Below, one piece after another: positions 1 through 64,000 of a stretch of 64,000 nucleotides of DNA; the first letter of the stretch is position 1, and each line of letters begins with the position of its first letter. Made by a program: the position numbers and the translations under genes. This DNA comes from Raillietiella orientalis (Eukaryota): the NCBI GenBank assembly GCA_036172245.1, contig JAYWIR010000012.1:3968001-4032000 (forward strand). The letters run 5' to 3'. Below the pieces are notes generated by a model, which saw nothing but the letters and a program-made list of their open reading frames with translations, was not told the origin of the DNA and ran no database searches.

Positions 1-1463
1 GCAGGACCGAACGTACCGGAAACGAGGGAGTCCGAGGAGATAGCTCCTTTGGACGACGACTGCCCGCTGTCTTCGGTCGACGAGCACATCCCAGCTTCAT
101 TCGGGAAGACCCTGACGCACTCTCCCGTGTTCGCTGAGGTCTTCATGGGGTGCTGCACATCGTGGACGGGGGTCCCTCCTTCCTGCCCTGGGTACGGCGG
201 GCAGTCCGCGTGCCGGGAGAGAACGTCCCGGGTCGGCGCGCTCCCCTCGCCGGGGTGGGAGAGCCGGGTCGCCCGCGCAGGCGCGGTGCGGGAGGGCGAC
301 CACTCGTTTTGAGCCTCCCTGGCAGACCACCTGCCGAAAAGCCCTCCGTGGGAAAAGTCTGGTACCGACGAAGTCCTGGGCTTGAAAAAGGAGGCTGCTG
401 CCTTCTGAAGCACGGGGACCCTCGCCTGCAGCCTCTGGTGGGCGTGGCTCCTGCCCATCCTCTCCATGCTTGCATTGTTCCTCTTCACCAGCTCTTCCAC
501 CAGAGCGCCGTGCTGGCGCTGGTGAGCGAAGTAGTGGTCCATTTGCATGGTCTTCAGGAACAGTGGGAAGAGGGCACCGCAGAGGGGGCAGCGCTGCTGG
601 AAGAACCGGAGCATGTCGGACAGGGCGTTGCCGGTGGCACCGCTGCCCTCCTCCACGGGAACGTACCCGTCGCCCTGCTTGGAAATGGGGGGATCGGGAC
701 TCTGCGGGTAGTTCTCCTCGAGCATGGAGAAGGGTGGATCCTGGAGGCTCCCGTGAACAGCGCCATCAGACGCGCCGGAAAACACGTCAATCTCCACGTC
801 GTCAGCGAGTGAGCAGGGGGGAGGGGTGGCAGTCGCCTTGGAAATCCCGCCCGAAAGCGTGGTGGAGGCGGTCGGGGGCAGCATTTCCAGGGCGAAGTTC
901 GCATCCACGCTGTCCCCTCCGCCGCCGTTCTCGACGCCAACGCTGCACAGGGATCCGTGCGCAAACACCGAGTTCATGGAGTTCACCACGTTCTCCGCTG
1001 GTGCCAGCAGCATCTCCAAGGAAAAGAGGTTCTCGGGAACGGGAGAAATGCTGGCGTCAGCGAGAACACACGCCGGAGCAGCGTGTAGCGGGGGCGGAGC
1101 CTTGGGGGGAAATTCGCCACCACCTCCTCCGATCACCCCTTCGGGCAGAGAAGGGAACTCCTGCTCTTTCAACGTCTCTGCCGGCTGCTCCGCGCGTGCC
1201 TTTTCCGGGTCTCTTTCCCCCGCGGCGTCCCGGAAAAGTCGCTCGTCCTGCAGGAGGGAGGCAGCTGCGCCGATCCCCTGCGGCGGCTTGCACCGGCAGC
1301 ACCCGCAGCCGAGGAAGGGGCAGGCAGCCGGCTCGTGGGCGTCGAGGCCGCTGCGGTCGAACCCGTGGGCGCGGCAGCTCCAGCACGCGGACCGGGCCTT
1401 CCGGAAGCAGCCGCTCCTATCCGCAGAGCGGTCCACCGAGGCAGCATCCTCGTTGCGTTGCAT
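1..1463 (-). CDS. Divergent DM-domain (doublesex/mab-3/DMRT-like) zinc protein, 3'-partial (>=487 aa, runs off the window)
   Basis: Minus-strand frame from ATG 1463 with no stop seen to the window edge, hence missing from the ORF track; + ORF 150..812 is its antisense shadow. Translation starts MQRNEDAASVDRSADRSGCFRKARSACWSCRAHGFDRSGLDAHEPAACPFLGCGCCRCKPPQGIGAAASLLQDE. This gives C-x2-C-x2-H-x9-H-x4-C-x4-C-x-C-x2-C (1290-1385), close to the DM zinc-ligand pattern. A second motif CPLCGALFPLFLKTMQMDHYFAH lies at 522-590. The start is uncertain because the frame stays open upstream. Confidence 0.72.
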   Translation of the reverse strand, partial: MQRNEDAASVDRSADRSGCFRKARSACWSCRAHGFDRSGLDAHEPAACPFLGCGCCRCKPPQGIGAAASLLQDERLFRDAAGERDPEKARAEQPAETLKEQEFPSLPEGVIGGGGGEFPPKAPPPLHAAPACVLADASISPVPENLFSLEMLLAPAENVVNSMNSVFAHGSLCSVGVENGGGGDSVDANFALEMLPPTASTTLSGGISKATATPPPCSLADDVEIDVFSGASDGAVHGSLQDPPFSMLEENYPQSPDPPISKQGDGYVPVEEGSGATGNALSDMLRFFQQRCPLCGALFPLFLKTMQMDHYFAHQRQHGALVEELVKRNNASMERMGRSHAHQRLQARVPVLQKAAASFFKPRTSSVPDFSHGGLFGRWSAREAQNEWSPSRTAPARATRLSHPGEGSAPTRDVLSRHADCPPYPGQEGGTPVHDVQHPMKTSANTGECVRVFPNEAGMCSSTEDSGQSSSKGAISSDSLVSGTFGP

Positions 1464-1559
1464 GTTCCCGCGGAGACGGGGAGTGTTACGTGCTGCCGGG
1501 AAGGGGGGCTCCCATCCTTCCAGATTCCAGATATTGGATGAGCAGGGATCGGTGGAGTC

Positions 1560-1595
1560 CTGTGGAGGAGAGAGAGAAGGAGGAAAAGTTAAGAG
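1560..1595 (-). promoter_or_regulatory. 3' splice acceptor upstream of the DM-like ORF
   Basis: Minus strand reads CTTAAC (branch-point-like), then TTTTCCTCCTTCTCTCTCTCCTCCA polypyrimidine tract ending CAG|G. The exon would start at 1559, 96 nt before the ATG, in phase 0 with the ORF. Confidence 0.6.
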
Positions 1596-2914
1596 GTGTT
1601 CGGTCCCCCTCTCTTTGGCGAGGAGAGGGGGACCACCTCCCTCCCTCCCGCTGGCCATTATTCTGTGGCGGGCACACCATCCCTCGGGGTGCTCCCCTTT
1701 CATCGTCGTTTGACCTCTCTGGCGGCGCCTCCAGCTACAGGATGCCGCGCACGCGAGAGAGAGCAGGGAACGAACGAGAAAGCGCGCTCCAGGAGGTACA
1801 TGGCTGGTGGCGGCGAGCCAAGGGCCCCGGCCGGAAGCCCGGAGGTGGCGACAACGACTGAAGAGAACACGTGGGGGACAGGGGTGGAGGGCCAAGGAAG
1901 GGAAGGGGCGCTCATGAAAGACGAGGCAAAGGATCCTGGGTTTCCTTCCCCCTCCCGGCTCTCCACTCTTCTGAGGCCAGGGAGAGGGAGAGCGGAAGAG
2001 GGGAGGAGAAAAATCACGGCGTGTGCCTGCGGGCGAGAGGGAATCACGGGGTCGGGTCGCGCCCTTCTTTCCCCGCCCGCTGCGTCGTGGCCGGAAGCGG
2101 CAGGACAGCGTCCCGCATCGGTCGCTTCTGGGAAGACAGAATCGCCTGGTCCAAATCGTTCTTCTGATGCGAGGAGGTGAAGAACAGGACGCCTCGCCGC
2201 TAAGTAGCGGAGATGGCCTCCTTCCTGCGAGGGGTGTGGAGGGGTTTTCCTGCTCTCCCGCCCTTTACTCGGCCAGAGGCGCGTGCAGGCGGAATCACCG
2301 GTCTAGACAACTGGATGACCGTGGCTCCTGGGTTACGCAGTATGCCGGGAGGCGGCCCTTCAAGGGCCTGAAAAAACAAAATCGGCACTAGCGACATCCG
2401 AGGAATCGACACGAACCAACCCCAAAGGGGCGAGCGATCCCGTTGGAAAGATGGGTCTAAGCAGAAGAAGTGGGGTCGTTGCAGAGACGACACTGCAAAC
2501 GGGGATGCAGGAAGAGATCCCTCGGCATGGTAACCCCAGCTCACCAGAAAGGCCGCTCTCTCCCTCGTAGTCGGGGCTTCCAGGAGAGCCACAAATAGTC
2601 GCGCTAATCTTTTCTGCAGAGATGACCGGAGACGCCCCGGGCGTCTCCCCTCGCTTGCGTCCCCTCTCCTCCACCCCTTTCTCTACACAAGTGCTTCGTG
2701 CGCACCTCTTCAACCCTTCGCAAGGATTGCCGACATTTTACGGGGGAGGGAGAGAGGAGAATCCCTCTTCCTCTTGGTCCAGCCTCCGGGCCCTTTTCGC
2801 TCCTGCCCTCGGAAGAAACCTCAGCAAGGCCGGGTCCGCAGCTTCCATCCCTGCTGCGTGTCGACAACTCCCATGGAAAATTCCTCTCTTTCCTGTTTTC
2901 CTCCTCCTGGCTCC

Positions 2915-2934
2915 GTATACAATGTATTACAAGT
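2915..2934. promoter_or_regulatory. DSX/DMRT-type binding site (paired), copy 1
   Basis: GTATACAATGTATTACAAGT; core ACAATGT matches the DSX/DMRT consensus AC(A/T)A(T/A)GT. Confidence 0.5.
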
Positions 2935-3844
2935 GAAGAAACCGTCGCTTGTTTCCCGTTGCTCGAGGGCACAGGCAGGAGGATTCCAACCTCGTTCGCG
3001 CACCACGTGAGTGCTGCTGTCAGGGAGGAAGTAACGTGGGCGATACCCCGAGTCACGCCGTGACACGGGGCGGTCCTGGCGAACCCTCCGAACATCCGAA
3101 GGCGCGAGTCGCCCCAATCGAAACTCTCGATGGGATCCGGCGTCCCCTGGATATCGTGGTGGTCCACCTCGTCGTACTCCTCTCCCCCTCCTTTCCTCGA
3201 AACGCGGAGGGTGGGAAGGAGAACGCGGGGGCTCCCGCATGGCTTTTGCGCGCGACGCATCGAGGTGAACCTTCACGAGCAGCGGAGCGGCGGGAGAAGG
3301 GGTCGAGGAACGGCGACTCCGTCGCATTAGGCTGTTGGGGACCTCCGGGCCGCGTTCCAAGGGGGAGGAAGCGAACACGAACGCGCGCTGCATCGGCGTG
3401 GAGGGAAGGAGGAGAGGGGTATGCGAGAGGTTCCTGCGCGGCAACCAACAGAACCTTCTTCCCTCCCTACCCCCTTCTGCCCACATCCTGAAGCGCCAGG
3501 AGGGAGGAAGTAGCGAGCATTCCCTCTGATCGGGTAGGGAGAAATGCCGGCAGGCGATGGCGCCGTGACGAGAGCAGGGTGGCAGAGCACTTCCGGAAAA
3601 AAGTCCCTCCCTGCTGCACCCGACCTCACCTTCCTGCGACAGCGAAGCAGGAGGGAGGACTATCCGCGGTGGATCATACTCCAGGAGTTTCTGCGCTTCC
3701 TCCCCGACGGAGAGATTCCAGGAGGATTCCTTCCCTGCGCCCTGCCCCTCAGGGCTTCAGCTAGCAGGGCACGAGGCGCTGCGGCGTTTTTCTGAGTGCT
3801 GGCGAGCGGAACGTTACGCTGGTTTCGGGCTGTCGGCATCGCCA

Positions 3845-3863
3845 TTACAATGTAATACAATGT
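3845..3863. promoter_or_regulatory. DSX/DMRT-type binding site (paired), copy 2
   Basis: TTACAATGTAATACAATGT: two perfect ACAATGT cores 10 bp apart. Confidence 0.6.
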
Positions 3864-5010
3864 GAGGCATCGGCAATGGCGCAAAAGTAGCGCGCAACTG
3901 CGTCCCGCCTCGCGCGCGGGAAAAGCCGACGGCGGGATGCAGAGACCGACGACCCTTCGAAATGGTAGAAGGGGGGGGGGGTAGAGAAGGAGGAGAAGAG
4001 ACTGCGATGCACAAGATGAAGCAAAATGGGGACGCAGTCTTTTTGCTCTCGAAGCACACGCCCGCTTCCTCCTACGGCGCCCCCTCTTTTTTCCCCGTGC
4101 GAGCTGCTACTCCTCTCGTTCCTGCCGGGTCGAAACTTCGCGAACCTCCCACGTTCTTCGCCCCGCCGCAAGAGGGACGCCACCATCCGCACTCCCCCTT
4201 CTTTCCGATGGACTTGTCCACCACCTCCAAGGGCGCGCTCCCGTACCCATGATGGGTTCCTGGCAACGTCCGACAGCGCGCCATGTCCAAAACAACAACA
4301 AAAAAAAAGAACACGCGCAAAAAAAAAGGAGAGGGAGAGAAAGAAAGGCGAACCCCCCGCCGCCAGCGAGCGCGCCAGTCGCCAGCGTGAGAAACTCGAG
4401 AACTGCGACACGCCGCCGCGGTCGGCGCGCCAGCTGCTGCCGACTTCGGGAAAACGCCTTTCCTTGCCTCTGCCTTTACGTCCGACTGGCACGGGGGGAT
4501 CGCGAGTCGGTGGTTGCCAAAGGCGCCCCCCCTTCCTCACCCTCTCCCGCTCCCCAGTTGCACGACCTACGGGTGCGACCGCCTCTCCGAAAGTTTTTCC
4601 CCATCCGCCCGGAAAGCTCGCTCCCTTCCCGACCCGGGCGTGGCCTTGTCTGCAATGTGGCCTTTCTCCCTCCCTACTCCCCACGACCCACAGAAGCGGC
4701 AGGCTCTCAGCTGCGCGCGCGCACAAAAGGTTCCTCTCTTACCTTGAACGGTCTAACGGCGGAGCGCAACGGCTGCCGGATTCGTTCCTTTGGAATGCAC
4801 TCGGGGGTAGGGGGGGGGACCCGCTCGCGCCACTTGCCCGTAGGCCAAATGCGCGCCCCCGGGTCGCAGGGGAGGGTTATGTGAACAAGGAGGCCGCCCG
4901 CACTATCAGCGTAGGGCACACGTCACGTTCGGGGAAGGCGGGCAGCTAGCAGCAGGCAGGCATCGTTGGTTACTTTGCGTCGTCGTCGGCGGGGGACCTC
5001 TTACTTTTCC

Positions 5011-5029
5011 TTACAATGTAATACAAAGT
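5011..5029. promoter_or_regulatory. DSX/DMRT-type binding site (paired), copy 3
   Basis: TTACAATGTAATACAAAGT: ACAATGT plus ACAAAGT 10 bp apart; first 16 bp identical to copy 2. Confidence 0.6.
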
Positions 5030-7104
5030 TCCCTCTCGCCTCCACTCCCTCCCCTCGCTCTGCACCTCTTTCAGCAGTAGTGTATGGCGCATGTGCCTGC
5101 TACTCTGTCACCCAGAGGGGGTCGCGGCTACCTCGTCGACTAAATGACCCCACCAACGCACGCACCCCCGTTGTTCGGTCGGGAGGACCTTCTTTCTTGG
5201 GGGTGGGGGAGCGCGGGGGAGCAGAAAGAGGAAAGGGGGAGCGCGCATGCGTGAGTTGGCCTCGCAGCAGCGAGCGCATCGCGCACATCGTGCGCTTCCG
5301 GAAAGGAAAGGAGAGTTGGCGCAGGAGAAGCCGCTTCCGAGCTGACCCCAAGATCGCACGCTTGTGGAGGAGGGGTGGGCCTGGAATGCTCTTCTGCAGT
5401 GCCAAATCCTCTTAATAGAATGCGTGCACGGTCAAAGACACTGCGCTCTCACATGTTCGAATTTCCCGGGCGGCGCTTGGGGAGCATCCGGAGGCTCTCG
5501 CCCCCTCCCCCCCTTAACCCACCCCCATTAAAGGGGGACTTCACAGTGCACCTGGTAAACAGGAAAAGATAAAAGGGAAGAGGTGGGCATAAGGGAGAAG
5601 GGAACTCTCGGGGGTTCAAAACCGGACGCCCACGCGGGATGCGACCTTGCTCCTCCCCTCCCTCCTGCGCTTTCCACGCTTGCATCGGTGCGGGAGTCGT
5701 CGCGTGGAGACCCGGTGCTCCCGGAGAGCGCCCACTCTCCGGAGAACGGGAGACGCATGCGCGGCGCCGCGACCGCTGCAGCGGGGCCCACGGAGGGGGA
5801 ATAGGAAGGAGGTATCGGAATTCGGCCTGCCGACCTTCTCGTGAGCAGCCGCGCCTCTCCTGCTGCGCCGAAGGGGCCAGCACCGCCTGACTTGCGGGGC
5901 TTCCCTAACGCTCAGACGCAGGAGCTCCTTCGGGGGGCCACCGTCCTGAGGCATGCGTGTGCAAAAGGGGGAGGGATGCAATGCAAGGAACAGAAAGGAG
6001 GGAGGTAGAGGGAGCAGGGAAAAAAAGAGGAGAAGGAAGACGACAATGATGATGGGAAGGAGGACGAAGAGGTAGAAAGGGGAAGAATGTTACACGGATC
6101 CGGTGTCCTCCCATGTGCTAAGAATTTGAGGGGTGCACCTTTATCCGTTGACCCCTTTGAAGGGCGGCGGCAAAGAAATGCAATGAGAAGGGGAGGGGAT
6201 GGAACGACACTGCCGGTCGCTCCGGGAGCTTCCGCAACGCGGGAGGGAGGATGGGACTGCGTGTGTGCAAATCCAGCACGGCGGAGGTCACGCGACGCGC
6301 GTGAGACAGTCTGCAGCAGCAGCAGCGGAGCCTTATTCTGTCACCGCCGCGCGAAAGCGTTCCACGGATGTCAGCGGACGGAGGTGCCGGGTGCCACGCC
6401 GCCGCCCACCACTCGCCTCCCCCTCTCGGGAACGCACGCTCTGGCAGAGCGGCGGCGGCTAGGAAAGCACCGCGCAACGGTCTTCCCCCGCGCATCGTGT
6501 GCGCTCCCGGGGGATCACGAGGTTTGAGGGTGGTGGAGGGTGAGGGGCGGTTCACAACCCCGGCGCCGGAAAGGGACCTGCAAGAATGGCGGCGCCGCGA
6601 ATAATGAAGCAGTAATGGCGAGTAATGACCCTAATTGGAGTTGCAAATGTGGAGAGCCAGCCCCCCCCCCTCCCAGTCACTAAAATTTTCCCAGAAAGGA
6701 AAAAGAATGGGGGAGAGGAGGGGGAGGAGGAAGAAGCAAAACCCAGTGCGTTCTGCAGTAGTCCACCTCACCTTTCGCCGACGTAGCCAAGGCAACGGCC
6801 CGTACGAGGATCGGCGGCCACACTCCGGAAGCACAGGAACTGAAGCGGCTGCAGCGAAGTGAAGCAGCAGCAGTTTATTTGGCTCTCCTGCCCCTACCTC
6901 ACCCCCACTTCTCTTTAAGCGAACGGCGGAATGTTTTTGCAAGGTGGGATGAGGGTGAGGAGCGCCGAGCGCGGTTGGAAGGGAAGGCAGTCGGGATACC
7001 GGATTTCCCGTCTGCCGACCGCGAGGGCGACAGGAGAAGGAAGGAACGCGCTAGGACCCGCTTGCGAACGGAGAGGGAGGCGGCGACGACTGGCGAGCGG
7101 GAAC

Positions 7105-7123
7105 TACATTGTAATTCAAAGTA
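7105..7123. promoter_or_regulatory. DSX/DMRT-type binding site (paired), copy 4
   Basis: TACATTGTAATTCAAAGTA: ACATTGT (reverse complement of ACAATGT) plus a degenerate second core 10 bp later. Confidence 0.5.
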
Positions 7124-7759
7124 GCTCGTTGTTCACGAGCTTGCCGAAGCCTCCTTCTCCCGGTTCCAGCGTCAAGAGCCCCTGAGCCTCGGGGGCTTCA
7201 CCCGTGACCTTCGGCCAGCACGTCCCCGCGAGTGTGCGGGCGAGACTGCGACTGTTGCTGCCCCTACAAGCCGTTCGCACGCGCCGGCCTCGCCTCGGAA
7301 TCTCTCCATTTGCGCCAAGTCCAGCAGGCCGGGAGCGCGCGGAGGGAGAGGAAAGCGCAGAGGGTGCGCCGCGGGAATTTCAATTCTAGGGGGCAATCGG
7401 ACAGGAAGCGCTGCGCCTCCCCCTCCTTTCTTCTATCGGCGCGGGGACCTCCCCGCTTCCTACTTCAAGAAGAAGGGCAAGAACGAGAGAGAGAAAAGAC
7501 GCTGTTTTCCTTCGCAGAATCGCTGGCATCCTTGAGGCGAGGACGAAAGGGGACCGCAAGCCTGCGCTTCCGTAGCCGATGGCGATGCGCGCGCGGAGTC
7601 GTCGTTTCATCCGAACGAAAACCCTCATTTTCCTTATAGGGGGCGAGATGAGGGGAAGCGGAAACCGGAGGGCGGGCCCTCTCGCACTCTGCGCTCATCT
7701 TCCTATAACCCCCTGCCTCTTTTGGGGAACAGGGGTGAGTTGAAGGACCTGAGCGGAGT

Positions 7760-8170
7760 GGCGCTGGCGCGAGTGGACGCGCACGACCCGCGGGCGAACG
7801 AAACCGCGCGCGGGTCCGGAAGCGGCCGGCCTTGGGGCGGTGGCAGCGGCGGCGCTCTCTCGAAGCCACGTGACCACCCGCCGGCCGGTCGGCAGTACCG
7901 GGAGACGAGAAGGTTCGGGCGTGCGCGGGTTGACGCGAGGCGTGCGCGCGCCTCACTCCTCGCCCAATGAAATTGCCGCGGCTTCCCCCGCAAGAGTTCA
8001 CCAATCACGTCGGCGAGCGCCGACCCCTAGTTGGCTGTCTGGGGAGTTCCCTCGCGGTGCTAGCGGCGCGGGCAGGGCGGCGCGCGCTGTTCGCTCGGTC
8101 GCCGCCGGAACGAGGCGGCGGTGTCGTCCTGGTGACGATCCGGAATGCTACCCTGGCGGATGACGCGCTC
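7760..8170. promoter_or_regulatory. CpG-dense promoter-like segment with CCAAT boxes and E-box
   Basis: Very CG-rich; CACGTGAC at ~7867, CCAAT at ~7964 and ~8001. No transcript evidence. Confidence 0.25.
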
Positions 8171-33300: not shown

Positions 33301-34830
33301 TGGCAGCATCCCTCGAAGCACGCCCCCCAAGGGTGGAATACGCATTTCGTTGGTTGTCAGTGGGGCTGCACCATATAGGAAAAGAAAAAAGAAAAAGACG
33401 TCCTTTCGAAAGAAAAGCTCTGAACCCTCCGAACCTCAGGATCTGGCTTATCAGGGGCAGAGCCAGGGATTGATGTGGAAAGATGTTCGCGAGTCCCGTG
33501 TTTTGATGAACTGCGTGAGGTGGGAGGACTGGCGACGACAGGAGTCTCTTGGAGCCCCCGAAGAGTGATTCTCCGTTGGTCAGCTGGGAATTACGCTTTT
33601 CTTTCAGCCGCGTACCGCAATTGGGAAGCTTCTTGTCGGGTGCACCATTGGGTATGTGATGCACTTTCCGGTAAAATGCAGCAGCTTAATCAAGGCACTT
33701 CTTTACAACGACGGAGCACGTCTGGAAGATACTGATCCAGAATAAATCCAACCTTCCCACCTATCAGTTTGGGAAAGCTATCGCAGACTTTCAAGATGAC
33801 ATCAAGAAAATGTTTGTTGGAAAACGACTCCAATAGAAAGCCATCGGATTGTGTCTGCCCTTCTCGAGTCCGTCTTGCCCCGGTCCTTGATCCCAGTAGA
33901 GGTCACAGGGATCCAGACCCTCTCCTCCCTCTAGATAAAACTGAACTTTTTTTAAAAAACTTTATCACCTCACCCTCACTTTCTATCTACCGTACAGGCA
34001 TTTGCCCTTGGCAACCTTCTTCCTCTACAGGTTTTGGTGTTCTGTCCGTTTATTTGATGTTGAAGAAACGCCCCTGAGGAACCAGGTGGCAAGGATTAGT
34101 GCTGCAGTGTTTGTCATAATACCAGTATTGGAACATTTTTGGAATCCCAGAAGGCAGCGGCTGTCTTTAAATCAGCGTAACTCCATTCACCGTAGTAATG
34201 CAAATATCGAAGGAATTGAGGAAATAACAGTAACACAAAAAAAAGAACTAAATCTCGTCGCCAACTACACGTAAACGGGAAGGGAAAAGAGGAGATGCTT
34301 ACTTCTTCGTAGCATAATATCGGAAAACGCATTAACGAGAACACGTTTAAGAGTTCCCGGAACCAAGTGGAACCCATCTTCACATTCTCCTAGCCATGCT
34401 GCTTGCCCACCACAATCGATGGGTTTCGAAGTGCTGCTGCCTCGCCCTGGAGCCGACCAGGAGAGCGAGACCACGGGGTCCTTCAAGGATGATCCAAAGC
34501 GGGAAGGAAGGGGTTTATGGAACAGGAGCTCAGGAGCACAGAGTTCAAAAGACATGGAAATCGTAACAGCATGCTGGCTCGTGCAGCCCGTAGCACTTCA
34601 TGGCACAGCTTTCATTCATCGGAAGCCGTGTGTACATGAATGAGGAACGTGTGCCCGCCCAGAGCCGTGTACACATAGTAAAGCTGTAGTGCCCATGTAA
34701 ATATAATTGTAAGCATCCGTCATTAAGGAAGCTGTGGTGCCCATGAAGGACCGCAGATTACTGTTTTGATAACGAATAGCCTCATGTTCCCATTCTCTTA
34801 CTGCAGAAGTTGTTATGTCAAGTATGAGTC

Positions 34831-37117
34831 ATGACAGTTTTGTCCGATTTAACAAATTTCGATGAAAGAAACTACCATTATGAGGAGGAGCAACGGTTGT
34901 TTATACCCAGGCATTTCAAGGAAAGATGTGATTATGACTTTCATAATAAATGCCTCAACGGAAAGCTTTGGTGTATAACAGATATATGTGGAATTATTTG
35001 TGCAATTTTCACCTGGCTCCTAATTTTCTATGCAGAATTCGTTGTGGTATTTGTTATATTGGCTTCTCATTCAAATCACGTGTATAAAATTTTCAATCTT
35101 GTTCTGTTCAATGCCTTGGCCTTTTTAGCACTGGTTTCTCATCTTCGTACAATGTTGACAGATCCTGTAAGTTCTGAGACAGTGATTGAATGCATTGATT
35201 CGTTTTCAAGAATTTTTGTGTATGGGAATTATGATCAAATGTGTAGCTCTGAAGTGGGAAACTTTTTTTTTGAAAAAGGTGTTTTCTGTTTCTGTTAGAT
35301 TTGTCAGTCATTCCTCTCGGTTTGGGGGATAAATTATAATTAGTGATGAATAGCTCCAAAGTAAATTTCATTGATTTTTTCCTAGGTAAAAAATTTGAAT
35401 ATCTTGATTTTATTGATAAATGCTTAGATATGAAGTAATGTGTATTCAAAATTTGAGTTTTTACAGTAGCTGTTTCAGAAAACTCATAAGCATGCCCTTA
35501 GTTTACGTTTACATGTCTCCTTAGTATTCTTCCATCTCGCTTTAATGAAGTGTTTGTAAAATTCCTAAAATAAATATTTTCTATTTTTGAGTTTAGGGAG
35601 CAGTTCCACGAGGAACTGCGACAAAGCAGCTCATCAAAGATATGAGTTTACAGGAAGGACAAGTAATTTTCAAATGCCTGAAGTGCTGTAGCATTAAACC
35701 TGATAGAGCTCATCATTGTTCAGTCTGTCAAAGGTTTGCATTGAGTTAAGATGACTGATCTTGAAGTTTTGGTGATCATAACAATTGCTTTGTAAAATAT
35801 TAAGTTTGTTTACAATTTTATTCCAATTGCATTTTGAAGCATAAAAACCTGCAGTAGTTATTGTGAATATTACCATTATTGTGATTTTAAAGTCCTGAGC
35901 ATCAGAAGCAATCAATATGTATTGTTCTTGTGACTTTAAGAATGCAATATTTGTTATGTGATTTCCAGTATTTCTTCTAAGTGATACTTAGACAAAATAA
36001 AGTACCTTCTTCCTTTATGTTGAGTATTATTTTGGAAGTAATGACTATTTGTAAGTGTGCTCCTCAGTAAGTTTGAGGAGTTGTTATTGTTACAATACTT
36101 GAATTTTGTGATTAGATGGATGTTGGATTAACTAAGCATGTTCACAAGTTTGTTTGTTTGTTTATTGCAATGCAAGACATTTTTGTATTTGCGTAAATAG
36201 AATCCAGATGAGATTTTGAAACATACATCATCATCTTTGAAATTTCGCCCCATGTTTTCCTAAAGATTGAAAGAAATGAGTTGAACAATTTCCATGATCT
36301 TTAGTCATCAGCTCTAGTATTTTAATTTATACTATATCAAATCTAATATTTTCGGTTGATTCAATTTTTTTTTCTTAATTTACTGTTCAAACAGTAGTTT
36401 TAATTCTTCACTGCTTGCAGCACAACAAGCATTTTACAATACTTTGTAAGGAAACGTTTGCATATTTTTAGAGGGGCAGTTCATTTTCTTAAAGTGTCTT
36501 AAAGTACAAGTGAATGAAATTGTAGTCTCATGTAACTGTTGCTTGCAGATGCATTCGAAAAATGGATCATCACTGTCCATGGGTTAACAACTGTGTTGGA
36601 GAAAACAATCAAAAGTTTTTTGTGCTTTTTACTGTGAGATCCCATTGTTGGTAATGTGTTGTATTGCACACCAAGTTTTTTTTTTTTTTCTTTCTAGTTT
36701 TATGTTGCTCTTAGTTGTTTACACGCATTATTCTTAAGCATCAATCAGTTTGCAATATGCATTGGAAAAAATTGGAATGGTTGTACTTCTTACTCACCCC
36801 CTGTCACTGTGATGTTCCTCATGTTTTTATTATTTGAAGCCCTCCTATTTTTTATATTTACTCTTTGTATGTTAGCATCCCAGATACAGGCTATCTGGAC
36901 AGACCAAACAGTAAGTTTATGATGTTCCCTTTGTTTGAAAATTATTTGTTTGCATCCTTAGGGTATAGAGCAGCTAAAGAAAGAAACCAAATGCCTAAAG
37001 AAATCCAAATGGAAAAGTATCCAATCAGTATTTGGTAGTTTTTCTCTCACATGGTTTTCACCATTTTCTTCATCACCTTCTTCCTTGGCATATAAGCATT
37101 ATCTTCATCCCATATAA
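34831..37117 (+). CDS. ZDHHC3: DHHC palmitoyltransferase, ZDHHC3/7 (GODZ) family, 5 exons, ~308 aa
   Basis: Exons 34831-35166, 35597-35733, 36549-36633, 36698-36910, 36962-37117, all with GT-AG introns and in frame. Motifs [64 protein letters not shown] and [11 protein letters not shown]. Confidence 0.96.
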
Positions 37118-44158: not shown

Positions 44159-45460
44159 TCAAAATCCTGTTTGTTTTCTGAAATGCTGCTGCAATTTGTT
44201 GGTTTTCAATTGTAAGCGTAATTTGCTCTTTGACAGTACTCTATCCATGAAAACCATATTTTGTTTTCTAAAGACATTACAATAAAATCAATTTTATAAA
44301 ATTATCACATGTAATGCCTACCGTCGCAAGTCCATCTGGGTAGTATTTTTGTGACACAGACTTTGGCACCATGACACTTTTCTCTTATTACATATTGCAT
44401 AATGAAATGATGGGAGTTTTTGTCTAAAATCAAAATTCTTCACATAAACAAGGACATGAATCTACTACCCTATAGTATTCATTAGTTTTCTGTGTATAAG
44501 TGATTAAATAAATCAAATCTGAAGCAAAAAAAAAAATTATGAAACTTTCATTACAAAAAGATTAAATACAGTTACATATACATAAAGCACAACACCGATG
44601 TAAAAAAGCTAAATGCGTGTATTGTGAAACACATGGATAATGCTTAAATAATTAACTTATTATAAATCATAGGCAAGTTACCTGTAGTATCGAATAAATG
44701 ATCGATGACCAACAGTATTCCCTGAAGGAAGAACTAACTGATAATCCACATCATTTGCATCTCCAATATCTGCTTCAGCATATTCTTGCTCAAATGAAAC
44801 ATCACCATAATCATAATACTTTTCATATTCAGTCATAGAAGTATCCTCATAAAACAGCTTTGTATGACCTTTGTTCAGCATATGCTTATGTACAGCATCC
44901 AAAGACATAAATCTTTGTCCACACCATAAACACTGGAAGTTCACTCCAACTTTCATATTCAGATATATCATTAACCCTTCCAAGTCTTTTACACACTCCA
45001 CATCAGGAATAAAAAATGAATGAGATACCAGCATATGAGCCAGAGTTTGATTCAAGGATAAGCTTTCATGTTTGCAAAACAAACACAAAAGACTGGGACT
45101 TTCTATCACATCTTCCCATTCATCGGACTCATTTCCATCAATTAAATCACTTTCTTTGCGCTTGACATTTTCGATATTGTCTCCTAATTTCTGATGTTTT
45201 TTGGAGTTTAAATGATTGCTCAATGAATTCTGTGAACTGAAGTTTTTTTGGCATTGTGAACAATAAAGTGAGCAAGTCTTCTTTTCTGTAGAATTCTGCT
45301 GGGCTTCTAGTCGAGATAAGAATCCTTCTATAGTTACAGATGGCAATTTCGCGACTTTTCTTTTTAAATTGTACCTATGCCAATCACTTTTATAATGCTC
45401 CCTGTGTAATTCAGGATCATTAAATTTTACTTGGCAAGTAATGCAAGTAAGCTTGCTCAT
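44159..45460 (-). CDS. ZNF622: ZNF622/Rei1-family cytoplasmic pre-60S maturation zinc-finger protein, 3 coding exons, ~329 aa
   Basis: Exons 45460-44682, 44423-44322, 44267-44159. Motifs CITCQVKF...HYKSDWHRYNLKRKVA, CLFC...HMLVSHSFFIPD, CLWC...HMLNKGHTK, LVLPSGNTVGHRSFIRYYRQ, and C-terminus KTNKLQQHFRKQTGF*. Confidence 0.96.
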
Positions 45461-48400
45461 TGTTACCAAGGGGCAAAACAATTCTCCTTTTTCTTTTATT
45501 CCTAGAAATCAGATTCAACTGATCAAAATTTTGCTCCTATAAAATTACCAATAAATGCCAAGATGTGGGAAATGATACTACAAACTAAACATTGTTTGAA
45601 TAATACCACCAAAACTTTCTCTGAACAATCGTTCTCCTGTGTTTTTAGTCATAAGTTTACCAGAAGTCCAATCCTTGAAAGCTGTTGTAAATCATAAACA
45701 TGTTTTTATTCTGATGTATATTTTGAACTTGTGTACCTGGGGAATATCAGCTGGTTGGTGGGCCTGTTGTGATTCCTATCTGATACAGAAGCAGAAAACT
45801 TATTTAATTCTCAAATAAATTAATAAAACGACTAAAGAATTCAAAAAATATATGATTTTACAAACGAAATGGAAAAAGAACTGAGAAAAGGAAATACACA
45901 TAAAAGTGGAAGTACCCCACACATATAAGCAAAAATGAATGTAGTTAATTTAGGAACGACGTGTTTCCTGGAACTTAAAACGGGGAAATACGAATGTAAT
46001 GCTTACAGTAGAATATGGCTACAAATTTCTTCGTACTTGGATCAACTCCTTAGCAATAGAGCATGCATCCACAATAAAACACCCATGTCATTACCTAACG
46101 ATTTCGGAAATAAAAAATTGAGGTTCTGCGCACAGCATTGCTGGAAAAAGAATACTTAAAAAATAAAAAAATAAATGCATGCAAGTTTCAGTAACTTTAT
46201 GAAATGGTTAACATGGGCAAGTGCTTTTTTAATCCTTTGTGAAACAAGATAAAAATAGTGTTTGTCATAAAAACAACATGGATTGTACGAAGCAACGTGA
46301 TTCACCCTTATAAAAGGCACCAGCCTTGGGACTTACATCGGGAGACGTTGGGCATATTGAATTTCTATATTGGAACACAACCAATATAGACATTCAACAT
46401 GGAAGATGCTCTTTCAAGAATCAGTCCAGAAAAGATTTTTTGCTTTATGAAGATGAACAGCACAAAGTTTTACGTATGACAACGAAAACACAATGTCAAA
46501 ATGAAACGAAAAAAGAAAAATGCAAAGCTCAAAAGACAAAATTGGCTTGTACTTTCATCTCTTTTGAATTTGGAAAGCACCCTTACACCTCAGGGGAAAA
46601 AAATCAACATTTATCCAAGGATATCATGATAATTATTTATATTGATTTGTGACAGTGATCATATAAGAGCATATTTTGGAATGTAGTTTGGCATCTCCTA
46701 AAAGTGGTTTTATAGGTTTTATATCAAAGTCTCCACATTCCGATCAGCCTGTTTTCTGATTTCCTTTGGAAAAGATGACATCCATTCTGGATAAAGCATT
46801 GAAGGGCAGACAAAACTTGTATTATGTAGGGATTCTTCTCGGAACATCATTTGACATTTTATCCTGTACCCAATTCATCTTATAATTTCTTTTTCAGTAA
46901 GCACTTTTGCGTTTGTTCATAAACATATTTTAAAATATTACAACAAGTATCATTCATGATTTAAAAACGAGTGAAATGAATCTATTCAATCAGCCAACAT
47001 TCCATTTTCTGCAAATATTCTTATCTGGAGAATGAGAATCCTCTATATTATATTTCATTGCTATGTTACAGAATCCAAACCAAAAGCAAGACCACTTCTC
47101 GGATACAAAAAAGAACTTGCATTACTTGGGTATCTTTTTATTTCACGTTGCACACAAGGTGAATATGGTCATTGAATTAGTTTGGTACATCGTATCTACT
47201 TGCTCAATATAGTGGCTCAAAGTATAGATTTAGATGTTTTTCTTTTGCATAAATGATTAACCATTATGGTTTCCTAAATTTTCACCAAGAAATGAATTGG
47301 TTTTTGGTGAATAAACTTCTGGATATTAACGTGAGAGCTGAGATTCAAAGGAACTCGTTCCGTTAACTAGAGAACGAAACATTTTATAAAAGACATTCAT
47401 ATACAATTTTGAAAGAGTTGGAGGAGTAGTTTCAGAACGCATGTATTAAAAGTTATTAGAAGCTATCAGTACTCAGTATCGACTAAATTCATTCATTTTG
47501 ACGTGTATGTGTGATGAATCTCGGAAGCATGAATAACGGACTTGATTGAAGAAAGGTCATTCATTGAGATTTTAATCAGACATTGGTATCGAATGATGCT
47601 CATTAATTTTATAGGGAATCAATCACAGATCTTTTTATTTGTATGATGGTGCATGTTAAGGAATCTGTGGTCGAAAATAGGCAAAAGAGTTTCAATGTTC
47701 ACGTGAAGACGTTGAAGGACTGTTTTCAGAGATTTGATTAGATGTTGTTGAATCAATCAGAGAAGATTCAAGATTACTGGCTATGCAATCATTTTAAATG
47801 GTCCAAGTTGACTAAGATATATTATACTCAGATGCGTGGAACAAATGTTATATGGTATAGATGAAATGCTACTTTATGTAATACCACAAGTATTAAGTTT
47901 TATTCCATATATAGATTTTATGCTAGGTATAGATTCAGAATGTCTTTCTGCATTCATGTAGAAATACACATTTTCAGCTTATTCTTTGATGCTTTTCTGT
48001 CATGAATCTTTTTTTATTTTGTTTCAGTGTCATCTGCATTTCAGAATTGAAGGTAGGCTCGTTGAGTACATATACTGCATCCACTCTGAGGAAAAATAAA
48101 TTTGTTTTGATTTCGTTTTCGGAGTTTTGGATCTCTCCTGCAATCGTGTAACCTTCATTTTAAGGCTGATTTTATTGCTGCTAAGATGTAGCTATTTAAA
48201 ACTTCGATCTTGAATATAGTTTTACCTGAAAAACACCCTATTTGAAATATTTAAATTAGCAATTTTTCATAAGTTTTCCTAGTGTTGGTGGAATTTCGAA
48301 ATTGTCGAATTCTCGTTTTCTAATTGGTTCTATATCTAAGAAAAAGTTGAGAAATTTTAAAATGAGTTAGGTTCTCATTCTAAAATGCAGTATCTTGAAG

Positions 48401-48892: not shown

Positions 48893-50208
48893 ATGACCTC
48901 ATCGGGAAAACAGCGGCAAGCGAACACCTTGAAAAACGTTTTTTCTAAATTAAGCTTCGAAGAATTACAGGAGCTAAAATCAGATTTGGGATCAAAATTG
49001 TTTGAAGAAGCATACTTTTCGAAGAACAAAGGTAACAGACGCATTTCAGCAAGAGAAAATAAAAACAGGTATCCTTTGTCGAAGCAATATTTATAAAGTC
49101 TTTAAGATCTTTCCACATATTTATCACTGAATTCTAATCATATTTATCATTCCTGCATATTTATCACTGAATGAAGGAAAAGTTGATATTTACAATATGA
49201 TTAATTCTTGTACGTATCAGGCCAAGGGAAGAGTCATCAAGACAACCTGCATCCCAGTTCCGAACAGTGGTCGAAGTTCCTACCAATATTAGAAGAGACC
49301 CTAGATTTGGTAACCTCTCTGCAACATATAATCAAGAACGATGGAAGCGTTCATATGGGTTTATTAGAGAAATCAAAGAAAAAGAAAGAAAGGAGTTAAA
49401 AAAGGAGCTCAGGAACGAGCAAGATGCCTTAAGAATTAGGCAGATTAAAATGTTGTTACAAAGAATGGTAAGTTATTAATTTCAGGGTGCATTCTTCATC
49501 ATGTAAGAAATAAATTGATATTAGGAAAACCAACAACTGGAAGAAAAAAAGCGAGAAGAGAAAAAGAAAAGAAGAAGAGATGAAATTGGAATTCAAAAGC
49601 AAAGATTGAAGGATGGTAAAAGACCTCACTTCTTAACAACAGGTAAGTGTGTCGTTTTTCATTTCAATTTTCGGTATTGTACCTTTACTGTTTTTATATA
49701 TTGAAAGTTTATTGAGGTTAGATCTCTTTGCCTCTGCCTTTTTATGCTCATGTGGATTATTCTTCAGTCTTTTGTAAATGTATTAATTTAGATGGATGAA
49801 ATTAAGATTGCTTAGCACTCAGAGCTTCCTATTTTAAGACTTGAAAATGTTGTTCAGCTGCTAACAACTGGCTGATTTAGAACTGGCTGATTTAGTATAG
49901 ACAGATTGAGTACTGTGGGTATTTGTTAACAATAGTATTGGTCGCAATCATGAATTGCATTTCAATGCCTTTTTTTTTTAGTTTTTCATTTAATCAAAAC
50001 TGAGTCATCTCTGAGTTTACCATTTTCAGGTGAAAGGAAGGCTATTGACATTATGGATCAGTATGACAGGATGAAAAACAATGGAAAACTTGTCAAATAC
50101 TTGAAACGAAAGAACAAAAAGAATGCTATGAAGCAGTTAAAATTACTTCAGACTAACAGTGGCCCAAAGCGTCTGAGAGAACATTTTTCTGGTGCTAGTG
50201 AAAGCTGA
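48893..50208 (+). CDS. RRP36: rRNA processing protein RRP36, 4 exons
   Basis: Exons 48893-49068, 49221-49467, 49525-49642, 50030-50208. Motifs LSFEELQELK, ENKNRPREESS, RDPRFGNLS, SYGFIREIKEKE, LLQRMENQ, GKRPHFL, KLVKYLKRKNKKNA. Confidence 0.93.
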
Positions 50209-57943: not shown

Positions 57944-59945
57944 TTTGGATCGCCGTTCCCGAGGGCTTCCTCCGGACCCACCGGGACGCCCCGGAGACGC
58001 CCGAGCGCGCGCGCGCGCGCTCGGGAAGCGGTGCGCCGCCCGCAGCACCGGGATGCTCCGCGATCCCCTTGCCCCCCCTCTCCCCCTCCCACTTTCTCCG
58101 CTGCATCGCGCCCACCGGCGGCTGCGTGTGGTGCGCTCCCGTGCCGATCCATCACGAAAGATCTTAAAAATACATGCAGGCGCTCGTAGTATGTACAAAT
58201 TTATGTATGGGTTCGTGTTTACATAAATACATATTATAAAGATTAGAATATGTGCCTTCTAGGTATATTGATATATATTTATAAATATATTAATATACAT
58301 TTTTATTAATATCTATTAACATGCATATTATTGAGATTATTCTTAACTTGTATATATATACAGATAAATGTACTTAAAGATTAATAGATAGTCCAATATA
58401 TATTATGATCATAAGTCAAGTATACACATGCCTTTTGGGTTTATTGATATGCATTTATAAACAGATGAATATAGGAATTAATTTCAGTATACAAGTTGAT
58501 AAATATTTATTAACGTGCTTGTTATTACTATAATTTCAAGTACGTTTATTATATATTAATGCATATTTCTATGTAGAGTAATGTATATTATAAAGATTAT
58601 AAATATACATGTTTCTTATACATATTAATATGTATGTTTATATATAAATTAATATATAGAATTATGGACATTATTAAGAGAATAATATATGTATATACGT
58701 TCTTATTATAGATATTACTATCATTAATATGTTCATTATATATATTCATATATAGATAGATAGATATTATAAAGGTTAGACAAGTTAATACACGTGTTCA
58801 TAATATGTATTCATATATAGATAAACACATATTATAAAGTTTGGAAAAATAGTATGCTCATTATATACATTAATATGTATATTGGTATATAAAGTGATGT
58901 ATTGATTAATATATAGATCAATACATATTGTAAAGATAAAAAAATATATGCCTTTTATAAGTAGATTAATACACAAATTCATTTTAACACATATGATTAG
59001 CAGAATACAATATACATTATTAATGATTTATATAATATACATTTATTGTTGTAATAAACGTATGTGAAATGGATATATTAATGTCGAATTAGGAGCATGT
59101 ATACACACATGTACAGATTGCACGATCAAAATGCCGAAAACACCCTTCGTCGTTTCCTGAGGAATTTTCACCTTTGAAGTGTTATGTTGAAGTGATGGGA
59201 AAAACGACATACAAAATTTCCTTTTCGTCCTTTTCATTTCGTTGATTATTTTTTCCCACTGCTTCTGATTTTGCCATTATTTTGATTTCCTATAATGCGA
59301 CATTGTATATTCATTTAATATACACATAATTTGTATGCATATTAAATGAATATGAATGGCGTAAAGATTAGAAAAAATAAAAATGTATGGATAGATTCCA
59401 GATTAATGTATGTATTCAATGTATACATATATAATCTATCCCTATATATTAATGTACATAATAAACATATGTATCCATTTTTGTAATCTTAATATATATT
59501 CATCCATCTATTAATCTCTTTCCCTACATGTTAATCTCTATGTATTTATATGTGAATATGTCTAAAAAACGTATTACAAATAATCTTCATAATATGCATG
59601 TTAATAAATATTAACAAATACGTGTGTTAAAACAAATTCGCATATTAATCTATACATAAATGTATATCTTAATATACATACTAATCATACATTTTTATAT
59701 TCTATGATGTTCATAATATGTAGCAATCCATGCATTAATCTATACATACGTTAATGTACACAATTAACGTGTGCATTTATTTTGAAGACGTTTCGTGATT
59801 TCGAACGCATGGCGGAGGACGCGCGTCGCGGGCGGCGGCCGCCACGAGGCGCTTCCGAGGCAACGATCGCTTCACTTTCCCACCCCGGGCGTACCCGGGT
59901 GGCAACCCCGGCGTGCCCGGACGAGAGGGAGCGCCGATTACAAAA
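57944..59945. mobile_element. Foldback-like element with long imperfect inverted arms and an AT-rich, internally repetitive interior
   Basis: 58151 ATCACGAAAGATCTTAAAAATACATGCA versus the reverse complement from 59799, ATCACGAAACGTCTTCAAAATAAATGCA. Inverted similarity continues inward (TTAATATYTATTAACATGCATATTAT) and outward into GC-rich DNA (57944-58005 versus 59885-59945). No transposase ORF. Confidence 0.75.
58000..58025. repeat. Perfect 26-bp palindrome with (GC)8 core
   Basis: CCCGA(GC)8TCGGG. Confidence 0.95.
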
Positions 59946-62271: not shown

Positions 62272-63948
62272 TTATTTTGCTTCGGTGGGCGGTTGGCCGG
62301 GTTGGTTGGCGCCTCGCGTTTTCCTAAGCACGGCGAGCCTCGCCCTGTAGGACCGGATGGTGTCCCTGAGGTAGCGCAGCTCGTCCAGGTCGCCGAACCA
62401 CGTACCGGGAACGTACGTTACGCACCCCCGCAGGGGTCCCAGTATTTTCCTGCCGATGTTGACTCCGGTCCTGAGCACGAGGAGGCTCTCCAGCACCTTC
62501 ATGAGCTCCTCCTCCCCGAGGTTGACCATCGCCATCACCTTCCGCTGCCTGGACAGGTGGCGCATGTCGACCTTGAGCGTCTTCAGCGCTTCGATGGGGA
62601 ATTCGATGCAGACCTTGAGGTCCGCCTCGCACGCGCAGAAGACGTACGGGCACTCGGTGACCACCACGTTGGCGCCGCCCTTCAGCCTGTGGGCGGCGAT
62701 CAGATTGGTCAGATGGAACTTCAGCCTACTCCGGTACGCCTTGTTCGCGTCGGTGCACAGCATCAGCAGCTCCTCCTTCCGGACGCTCATGGCCCGCATC
62801 CGGTTCAGCTTCTCGTCGATAAAGAAGAACTTGCCCATCTGGAGGCCCTTGGTCTGCCGGACGACGCCCTCCGTGTCCAGGATGCAGATCTCGGTTTTGG
62901 GATTGAGGAACCTTCCCCTCTTCACCATCCTCTTCAAGGGCAGGAATTGCGCCACCGTCATCCCCAGAGACTTGGGCAGCCCGACCGAGCCCTTGGTCTC
63001 GTCCTCCTCTACCTTCATCTTCTTGACCGGTGGGTCATCCCCGTTGCCGCCATTCTCCGCTGCATTCTCCTCCTCGAGGATGTCCTCGTCCAGGAGGTCC
63101 TCGCAGTTCGACGTGTCCTCCTCCGACGTCCCTATCTCGGTCAGGGAATTTGGGTGGTTCACCGGGATGCCCTCCCTCTTGATTCGACTCTTCTTGCGCG
63201 GATCCCGGCGGCTGCTCTCTCGATACTCGTCGCAGCCCTCTTCGTCCTCCGACTCTGTCTCCGGGCCCGCCACCATGGGCATCATCGCCATCAGGCTCTC
63301 CGCCTCCTCCGCCTCCTCGTCGACCACGAACCTCTCCAGGAACCTGCAGGCCTCCAGGGCACTCGTGTACTCCGTGAGCTCCAGGACGCAGTTGCTGATC
63401 TTCCGCAGCCCGGGGCTGTTCACCGGCCTGTCGTCGTCCACCGCCTTGGTGACCTCCAGCGCAAACGACGCCCTGGCAAACAGCCGCAGCAGCAGCGGTA
63501 GCTTGGCGTCCTCCACGAAGCTCAGGAACGCCACGCTCAGACCGTTGGAGAGCCGGTCCAGAGTGTCTGGGGTGGGTTCGGGTCCACGCTTGAGACCCAT
63601 CCTCAGCTCGTGCAAACGGACGCACTCGGTCCACCGAGGCGTCCTCCGGTCCTCGTTCGCAGCGGCCTTCAGCTCCACGAAGGGCGCGTAGTACGCCTGG
63701 TGGAAGGAGGGCGTCCCCGTGAACTGCTCCCGCTCCTCCGCCTCCTCCGAATGGGAGGAGGAGGTCGAGGGAAGGGCCAGGCGCCGCTCCACACCGCCAG
63801 CGCCGCTTCCGGAGGTGCCTGCCGTTTTCTCCCTCGGGGTGGCGCTCGCGCTCGAAACCCCTCGCCAGACGCCCACGCCAGCAGCACCACCGTCAGCCGG
63901 AAGCGCCCCGGACCACGTCAGCGAGCTCGCACGATTGAGACGGCGCAT
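62272..63948 (-). CDS. Intronless 558-aa protein with a C-terminal Egalitarian/EXD1-like DEDDy 3'-5' exonuclease-type domain
   Basis: Normal protein composition, strong GC3 bias and long antisense shadow ORFs indicate real coding sequence. Motifs ICILDTEG..KGLQMGKFFFID (ExoI, DTEG at 62866-62877), YVFCACEAD (ExoII), KVDMR, GPL....Y....WFGDLDEL (ExoIII). Acidic linker with NLS-like PPVKKMK. True start uncertain; the family call is less certain than the CDS call. Confidence 0.8.
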   Translation of the reverse strand: MRRLNRASSLTWSGALPADGGAAGVGVWRGVSSASATPREKTAGTSGSGAGGVERRLALPSTSSSHSEEAEEREQFTGTPSFHQAYYAPFVELKAAANEDRRTPRWTECVRLHELRMGLKRGPEPTPDTLDRLSNGLSVAFLSFVEDAKLPLLLRLFARASFALEVTKAVDDDRPVNSPGLRKISNCVLELTEYTSALEACRFLERFVVDEEAEEAESLMAMMPMVAGPETESEDEEGCDEYRESSRRDPRKKSRIKREGIPVNHPNSLTEIGTSEEDTSNCEDLLDEDILEEENAAENGGNGDDPPVKKMKVEEDETKGSVGLPKSLGMTVAQFLPLKRMVKRGRFLNPKTEICILDTEGVVRQTKGLQMGKFFFIDEKLNRMRAMSVRKEELLMLCTDANKAYRSRLKFHLTNLIAAHRLKGGANVVVTECPYVFCACEADLKVCIEFPIEALKTLKVDMRHLSRQRKVMAMVNLGEEELMKVLESLLVLRTGVNIGRKILGPLRGCVTYVPGTWFGDLDELRYLRDTIRSYRARLAVLRKTRGANQPGQPPTEAK

Positions 63949-64000
63949 CCTCGCGCGGATCCTTAAATACGTGCCCCTCCCGCGCTGCGGCGCTCGCGCA

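Follow-up and report, generated by a model that had tools for sequence, protein, structure and literature searches.

A putative transcription-factor site cluster with Dsx/DMRT-like architecture beside a taxon-restricted gene in Raillietiella orientalis

Introduction

The sites bound by Dsx and DMRT proteins are the closest described counterparts of the DNA elements presented here. The core binding motif of Dsx is given as ACAATGT (PMC8041189, in part; citations so marked refer to sources available as partial text). SELEX with the DM domains of seven insect and crustacean Dsx proteins led to a 7-nt palindrome printed as ACAyTGT (bioRxiv 10.1101/2024.09.25.614005, in part). For DMRT1, the site is an inverted repeat of 13 bp with an A/T pair at its center, and the probe that was used contains GATACATTGTTGC (PMC1931443). 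DMRT proteins are described as binding in the form of dimers, trimers or tetramers (PMC12186615, in part). In this report, we present a cluster of four short palindromic elements and the adjacent orphan open reading frame (ORF), P0001, from a stretch of 64,000 nucleotides of Raillietiella orientalis (GenBank assembly GCA_036172245.1, contig JAYWIR010000012.1, positions 3,968,001 to 4,032,000 of the forward strand). This whole stretch is referred to as the window, and all positions are counted from its first letter. As it stands, the locus is a putative transcription-factor site cluster beside a taxon-restricted gene.

Both halves of the locus invite comparison with DM proteins. The DM domain is bipartite, with the recognition helix as its second half (PMC1931443). 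Its zinc module comprises intertwined CCHC and HCCC sites (bioRxiv 10.1101/2024.09.25.614005, in part) and is N-terminal in Dmrt genes generally (PMC6604209, in part). Among the DM paralogues tied to sex, Po-iDMY of a rock lobster is described as a male-specific, Y-linked paralogue of iDmrt1 (PMC12154352, in part). An earlier sequence-only reading of the window's first 7 kb had proposed that P0001 is a DM-domain gene flanked by its own cluster of DSX/DMRT sites, for which it took ACAATGT as the core, in agreement with the literature. Its observations were confirmed by the present analysis, and its interpretation is partly supported.

The element cluster

The motif TACA(A/T)TGTA (TACAWTGTA) occurs four times in the window, at 2918, 3846, 5012 and 7105, so that every copy falls within 2918-7113. 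The expectation from 100 dinucleotide-preserving shuffles of the window is 0.10 and no shuffle reached four, which bears out the four sites as first read. When strand is taken into account, all four are one and the same 9-mer, TACAATGTA, present three times on the plus strand and once on the minus strand. An order-2 Markov model predicts 0.0027 copies of it in 1500-8000 (Poisson p about 2e-12); an earlier hand estimate of ~0.01 expected 9-mer hits in 7 kb was, if anything, generous. Within 1500-8000 it is the most over-represented 9-mer, above the CAG repeats, and p is still about 3e-7 after correction for all 131,072 9-mers. A literature search for the exact 9-mer gave 236 papers that contain it, and the 15 listed among them had only primers or unrelated uses. 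The 7-nt core, ACAWTGT, is present 11 times in the window: five copies lie at 2919-7112 and six in AT-rich DNA, with none in the remaining ~36 kb of GC-rich DNA. Each site had also been described as sitting in an AT-rich island within GC-rich DNA; the islands are real and each holds the motif, but they are only about 20-35 nt long.

The likeness among the four sites extends beyond the 9-mer to a 19-nt element, TTACAATGTAATACAAWGT, which all have in common and in one orientation:

2917-2935, plus strand: element 1, ATACAATGTATTACAAGTG, with palindrome ATACAATGTAT and 5+1+5 symmetry
3845-3863, plus strand: element 2, TTACAATGTAATACAATGT, forming with A3844 the perfect 13-bp inverted repeat ATTACAATGTAAT (3844-3856), 6+1+6
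5011-5029, plus strand: element 3, TTACAATGTAATACAAAGT, 5+1+5, with symmetry reaching outward to ACTTT...AAAGT (5003-5029)
7104-7122, plus strand: element 4, CTACATTGTAATTCAAAGT, 4+1+4 plus further outer pairs, with the central base flipped

Scored with a matrix derived from these four sites, the elements reach 31-37 bits. Next in rank are the elements themselves read on the opposite strand (14.2-22.1 bits), and AT-rich DNA reaches at most 16.9 bits. No further copy was found in the window's GC-rich DNA, where other non-element matches stay below 12 bits. Outside of the elements the likeness ends: the flanks fail to align (their mean column identity of 47% being driven by gaps), the surroundings of 400 nt have 16 7-mers in common against a mean of 16.4 for control sets of random GC-rich windows, and no secondary motif common to the surroundings rises above background. 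Since a 19-nt element is common to flanks that do not align, it behaves as a short selected word and not as a transposon copy. In otherwise unrelated DNA, one short word has been retained four times, and it forms no repeat family within the window.

Every element is a palindrome centered on ACA(A/T)TGT, and in all four the core is bounded by T at -4 and A at +4. The full 13-bp inverted repeat (6+1+6) is perfect in one element, while two have 5+1+5 symmetry and one has 4+1+4 with outer pairs. In element 4 the central A is replaced by T and the flanks keep the orientation seen in the other three, which is what a symmetric dimer site tolerates. In addition, each element carries a second ACAAWGT-like site whose center is located exactly 10 bp downstream and which reads ACAATGT, ACAAAGT, TCAAAGT or ACAAGTG. 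In element 2 this second core is an exact ACAATGT, giving that element two copies of the ACA(A/T)TGT core that is present in all four.

The orphan ORF P0001 and its upstream region

The likely coding sequence beside the elements lies on the minus strand and is followed on its 5' side by the region that carries them:

3-1463, minus strand: orphan ORF P0001, 487 codons from ATG 1463, running off the left edge of the window; likely coding by GC content at the third codon position (GC3) and codon usage
519-593, minus strand: second putative zinc finger, CPLC...H...H, P0001 residues 291-315, RCPLCGALFPLFLKTMQMDHYFAHQ; from a phmmer match to PDB chain 2mxp_A, E 1
1464-7103, no strand assigned: upstream region carrying the elements, GC-rich (about 62%) and apparently non-coding by GC3-GC2 and Pfam tests

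The minus frame of P0001 has no stop codon between 2264 and the edge of the window, and its composition changes within that span: GC at codon positions 1, 2 and 3 is 0.65/0.54/0.79 from ATG 1463 on, as compared to 0.61/0.68/0.62 in the same frame at 1464-2264. Codon usage was taken from 62275-63999 (GC3 0.87), which besides P0001 is the window's sole ORF rich in GC3. Scored in this way, the P0001 frame has a log-likelihood of -0.05 per codon, the best of the six frames. It outscores the best frame of every one of the 34 non-coding control chunks (maximum -0.305), with a step up in the score at about 1454-1544. P0001 is likely to be a real coding sequence that starts at ATG 1463, so the minus-strand ORF that had been read as far as 1463 is retained.

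The homology searches identified no relative of P0001. No homologue was found in a word-indexed search of 5.8 billion sequences (lengths of 267-853 amino acids only), at E<=0.001 among 1.84 billion representatives, or in metagenome and viral contigs, and the ESM Atlas gave no usable match for residues 12-80. Residues 291-315 weakly resemble the ubiquitin-binding zinc finger of CALCOCO2/NDP52 (PDB 2mxp), with which they have the pattern CP.C..FP......DH.F.H in common. This match reaches only E 1, with no Pfam match, and may be regarded as a lead only. Between the zinc motifs, at residues of about 120-235 (765-1100, minus strand), P0001 has repeated acidic-hydrophobic motifs (ENLFSLEMLL, DANFALEML, DDVEIDVF, PPFSMLEE) that bring to mind activation motifs or short linear motifs for interaction.

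Upstream of P0001, no other frame of at least 60 amino acids with a GC3-GC2 difference of at least 0.22 is present in 1.5-33 kb, and the 13 stop-free frames of at least 170 amino acids that overlap 1464-7103 match no Pfam family at E<=0.001. The elements therefore sit in apparently non-coding DNA upstream of P0001, at a measured 1.46-5.64 kb from ATG 1463, which agrees with the 1.5-5.7 kb of the first reading.

Candidate binders of the elements

Like the DMRT1 in vitro consensus and the DSX1 site that lies upstream of fruitless P4, the elements have an ACA(A/T)TGT core and an inverted repeat around a central A/T, which is perfect over 13 bp in element 2 only (PMC8041189, in part; PMC1931443). 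Their T at -4 is also present in the DMRT1 probe (PMC1931443), and they are placed several kb upstream of a gene as is the DSX1 site (PMC8041189, in part). Unlike these systems, the present locus has the site in four copies, and in each a second half-site at a fixed distance of 10 bp downstream makes up a 19-bp composite. Another difference is that the -6/+6 positions fit the Dsx preference in only two of the four elements. The likely affinity of the host animal can be judged from the ZNF622 gene in the AT-rich part of the window, which has matches to 962 proteins at E<=0.001. Among the best 120 of those 962, the organism-named matches are from insects or crustaceans only (40-51% identity), and for that reason the window's animal is regarded as arthropod-like. 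Given Dsx-site architecture in the DNA of an arthropod-like animal, DM factors are sensible candidates for the binder.

We tentatively favor, with a little less than even confidence, the reading that the elements are a cluster of predicted sites for a dimeric DNA-binding protein, with a DM-family factor as the best candidate, acting on the adjacent orphan gene. Under such a scheme, a sequence-specific protein would bind each 19-bp element as a dimer or higher oligomer, and a DM-domain factor of the Dsx/Dmrt class would be the best candidate for this role. The second, weaker ACAAWGT-like site, at 10 bp or one helical turn downstream, would favor cooperative binding along a single face of the helix. 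Spread over 4.2 kb, the four elements would form a cluster of like sites that may serve as an enhancer or silencer. The cluster would lie upstream of the nearest confident coding sequence, an orphan gene with a putative N-terminal eight-ligand zinc module and a second putative CCHH finger, and P0001 would be the most likely target of the factor that binds the elements. DMRT1 binds near Dmrt genes; a literature search on DMRT autoregulation yielded nothing usable.

Several observations weigh against a DM-family factor acting on P0001. The window shows no enrichment of the loose Dsx 13-mer RNNACWAWGTNNY (6 copies vs 3.86 expected, with 22 of 100 shuffles reaching 6), and both flanks conform to it in only two of the four cores. 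It is proximity alone that assigns the target gene; the ORF is cut by the end of the window, and on the other side of the elements another 26 kb of GC-rich DNA stretches away without recognizable genes. Finally, the Sox/TCF HMG consensus, WWCAAWG, fits seven of the eight half-sites.

This last point raises the prospect that the elements are instead paired HMG-box sites of the Sox or TCF/Pangolin class, with two WWCAAWG sites 8-10 bp apart in each element. Of the seven fitting half-sites, five read TACAATG, one TACAAAG and one TTCAAAG; the exception is TACAAGT, the second half-site of element 1. Locally the consensus is dense, with eight matches in 2.9-7.2 kb vs seven in the other ~29 kb of 1-33 kb, but over the whole window it is not enriched (80 matches vs 69.9, with 11 of 100 shuffles reaching 80). 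Symmetry tells against this explanation. An HMG site needs no exact palindrome, yet T-ACA-W-TGT-A is invariant in all four elements, and the symmetric flanks that are kept despite the flip of the central base are left unexplained. For these reasons, we consider HMG-box sites an unlikely explanation of the elements.

The Cys/His module of P0001 and the DM domain

A DM-family factor as binder leaves the nature of the P0001 protein itself to be considered. Close to its N-terminus is the following module:

1290-1385, minus strand: N-terminal Cys/His module CWSCRAHGFDRSGLDAHEPAACPFLGCGCCRC, P0001 residues 27-58, DM-like in ligand order only; sub-threshold match to Pfam PF00751

The module has the spacing C-x2-C-x2-H-x9-H-x4-C-x4-C-x-C-x2-C. 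Its eight putative zinc ligands, C27, C30, H33, H43, C48, C53, C55 and C58, follow the CCHC/HCCC order, and in this order (C C H H C C C C) and in its N-terminal position the module is like the DM domain of Dsx, MAB-3 and DMRT proteins (PF00751). A relaxed version of the ligand pattern, written after seeing the sequence, had no match in a six-frame reading of 300 simulated GC-rich sequences of 32 kb each. The CR.HG and CPF..C.C..C residues also match conserved DM positions. The DM-type ligand pattern of the first reading thus stands for the order of the eight ligands; it does not for two loops that are one residue too long. The canonical DM spacing is x8 and x3 where P0001 has H-x9-H and H-x4-C, which amounts to one extra residue per loop. 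In agreement, 34 residues of P0001 align to 32 positions of the PF00751 profile, pointing to two extra loop residues.

The claim that P0001 is a DM-domain gene could not be demonstrated. The profile check against Pfam DM that had been proposed for the ORF gave 11.3 bits vs a gathering cut-off of 27 bits (E 0.34), with residues 26-59 on profile positions 4-35 of 47. DM was the only Pfam family reported for P0001 when 24,736 families were searched. As a control, 83 stop-free frames were taken from the same GC-rich DNA; four of them matched one Pfam family or another at E<=0.34, and because junk frames score as well, the DM score is at noise level. The match also adds no second line of evidence, as the profile and the sequence-only reading respond to the same ligand pattern and are not independent. 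Beyond the zinc ligands, profile positions 36-47, which correspond to the recognition helix, are unmatched in P0001; the residues after C58, the last Cys, are KPPQGIGAAAS, and a low-confidence AlphaFold2 (AF2) model has no helix at residues 59-73. That model, made without an alignment on residues 1-90, has a mean predicted local distance difference test score (pLDDT) of 46.7 and a predicted template modeling score (pTM) of 0.21, too poor for a fold search. A phmmer search of the PDB with the whole ORF returned no DM chain at E<=10, and the 55-residue module alone returned no PDB chain at all at E<=10. In its two lengthened loops, its missing recognition helix, its score far below the cut-off and its dissimilarity to solved DM chains, the module is unlike the DM domain, and neither a DMA nor a Dsx-dimer domain was reported for P0001. 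Since the family tests fail, P0001 is not filed as a DM-domain gene. Its zinc module would have no relation to DM or else be a DM derivative, strongly degenerate and without the recognition helix, and P0001 itself is therefore probably not binding the elements in the DM manner. That the module is a degenerate DM derivative appears rather unlikely.

A stronger proposal, the full model of the first reading, is that P0001 is a true, highly derived DM-domain paralogue that would bind, or compete for, the upstream DM sites in an autoregulatory or decoy loop and might even be a sex switch. In its favor are the ligand order and consensus residues, the N-terminal position of the module, the standing of DM as the sole Pfam family reported, the absence of the relaxed pattern from the simulated sequences and the presence of a DM-type site cluster within 6 kb. 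Fast evolution of a DM domain, extending to a change of ligand, is described for cricket Dsx (bioRxiv 10.1101/2024.09.25.614005, in part). Against it stand the family tests: a profile score that junk frames equal and that duplicates the ligand pattern, two longer loops, a stretch beginning with KPPQGIG where the recognition helix should follow, no PDB chain for the module, and no relative among 1.84 billion representatives. Sex-switch DM paralogues such as DMY, DM-W and iDMY have only the idea of a DM-like gene without orthologues in common with P0001. As far as is known, they keep a canonical DM domain that is recognized by profiles, unlike P0001. A DM paralogue of this kind is distinctly unlikely.

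A variant of this proposal combines the DM-factor sites with a P0001 protein that does not bind DNA. P0001 could be an arthropod-lineage-specific DM derivative in which the zinc scaffold was kept, the loops were lengthened, the recognition helix was lost and a finger of the ubiquitin-binding type was added. Placed under four phased DM-factor sites, such a protein could dimerize with canonical DM proteins or titrate them. We regard this as very improbable. If true, the helix-less derivative would be a dominant-negative or decoy arm of a sexual-differentiation circuit; to our knowledge, a Dsx/Dmrt-controlled, non-DNA-binding DM decoy is of an undescribed kind, although no search was made for such a report.

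Duplication, mobile-element and RNA explanations

The elements might also be without function: relics of small duplications, decayed termini of a mobile element, or a chance cluster picked after the fact. The motif was indeed chosen post hoc, and by our estimate one pair of 19-mers with 18 of 19 positions identical is not improbable in 64 kb. An inverted pair of sequences, I15, at 5002-5020 and 7105-7123 (16 of 19 positions complementary), can in addition be read as terminal repeats. Such repeats of a transposon were ruled out by the palindromy of the elements and by the lack of a target-site duplication beside 5002 and 7123; because each element is itself palindromic, an inverted pair arises automatically. 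A test for a transposable element or high-copy repeat within the window showed that homology stops at the motif and that there are no further copies. Chance is opposed by the 9-mer statistics, both before and after correction for all 9-mers, and duplication by the placement of the four copies in unrelated flanks. An absence of function is accordingly quite improbable.

It is still more improbable that the elements act in RNA, for example as UGUA sites for a PUF-type or other RNA-binding protein in a long transcript across 2.9-7.1 kb: the four composite elements do share one orientation, UGUA is found on both strands of each, and UGUAAUA, near the Pumilio core, is found in two of four, but only those two fit the PUF core, no Rfam family was matched, and palindromy at the DNA level and 10-bp phasing would go unexplained.

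Genomic context of the locus

The GC content of the window is bimodal, at ~62% in 1-33 kb, 54.2-58.2 kb and 59.95-64 kb and ~35% in 34-53 kb, and the ratio of observed to expected CpG is 0.89 in GC-rich DNA vs 0.63 in AT-rich DNA. Compositional bimodality of this degree within one contig is extreme. The following genes and ORFs lie away from the elements:

44681-45508, minus strand: first exon of ZNF622/REI1, a pre-60S factor (Pfam zf-C2H2_2, 4.7e-33)
49201-49476 and 49954-50205, plus strand: two exons of RRP36, for rRNA biogenesis (Pfam 3e-22 and 2.3e-05)
62275-63999, minus strand: second orphan ORF of 575 codons, continuing past the window's right edge; GC3 is 0.87, and the composition is protein-like with acidic stretches

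The housekeeping genes of the AT-rich block are conserved and have a GC3 of about 0.31; for the GC-rich DNA, GC3 is 0.79-0.87 in its two coding-like ORFs. Two further ORFs on the plus strand, 34828-35295 and 36698-36919, may resemble the N- and C-terminal membrane parts of a ZDHHC3/7-type palmitoyltransferase; Pfam returned no family for either. For the second orphan ORF, there was no Pfam family, PDB match, ESM Atlas match or viral relative, and no homologue in a search limited to lengths of 228-728 amino acids.

On the far side of the elements, the ~26 kb of 7200-33000 are 56-66% GC, with abundant purine/pyrimidine tracts and poly-A/T runs. No frame in this interval has a coding-like GC3, and no frame of at least 170 amino acids has a Pfam domain at E<=0.001; the interval is a gene desert next to P0001. 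Near the other end of the window, a 1.6-kb block at 58200-59800 has ~20% GC within DNA of 65-70% GC, its borders are sharper than 400 bp, and it includes short AT-rich tandem repeats at 58602-58665. The block looks like an insertion, and its three ORFs have no Pfam match. A viral or mobile origin of the GC-rich blocks is not supported: no relatives of P0001 or of the ORF at 62275-63999 were found in viral contigs, and none of the 83 stop-free frames of the GC-rich DNA has a Pfam domain. Scans of the window with Rfam and for tRNAs and tandem repeats returned nothing that bears on the motif cluster or the ORF.

Implications

If neither the DM-factor sites nor the DM ancestry of P0001 should hold, the locus would be a regulatory motif cluster next to a taxon-restricted gene. 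If the elements are DM-factor sites, the locus would offer, in an arthropod-like genome of a poorly sampled kind, a target module of Dsx/Dmrt that is clean, compact and testable. The four near-identical composite sites with their fixed 10-bp phasing could then show the higher-order assembly of DM proteins on natural DNA. Should P0001 in turn be of DM-domain descent, it would illustrate the extent to which the domain can decay with its ligands kept, and P0001 would be a candidate modulator of sexual differentiation.

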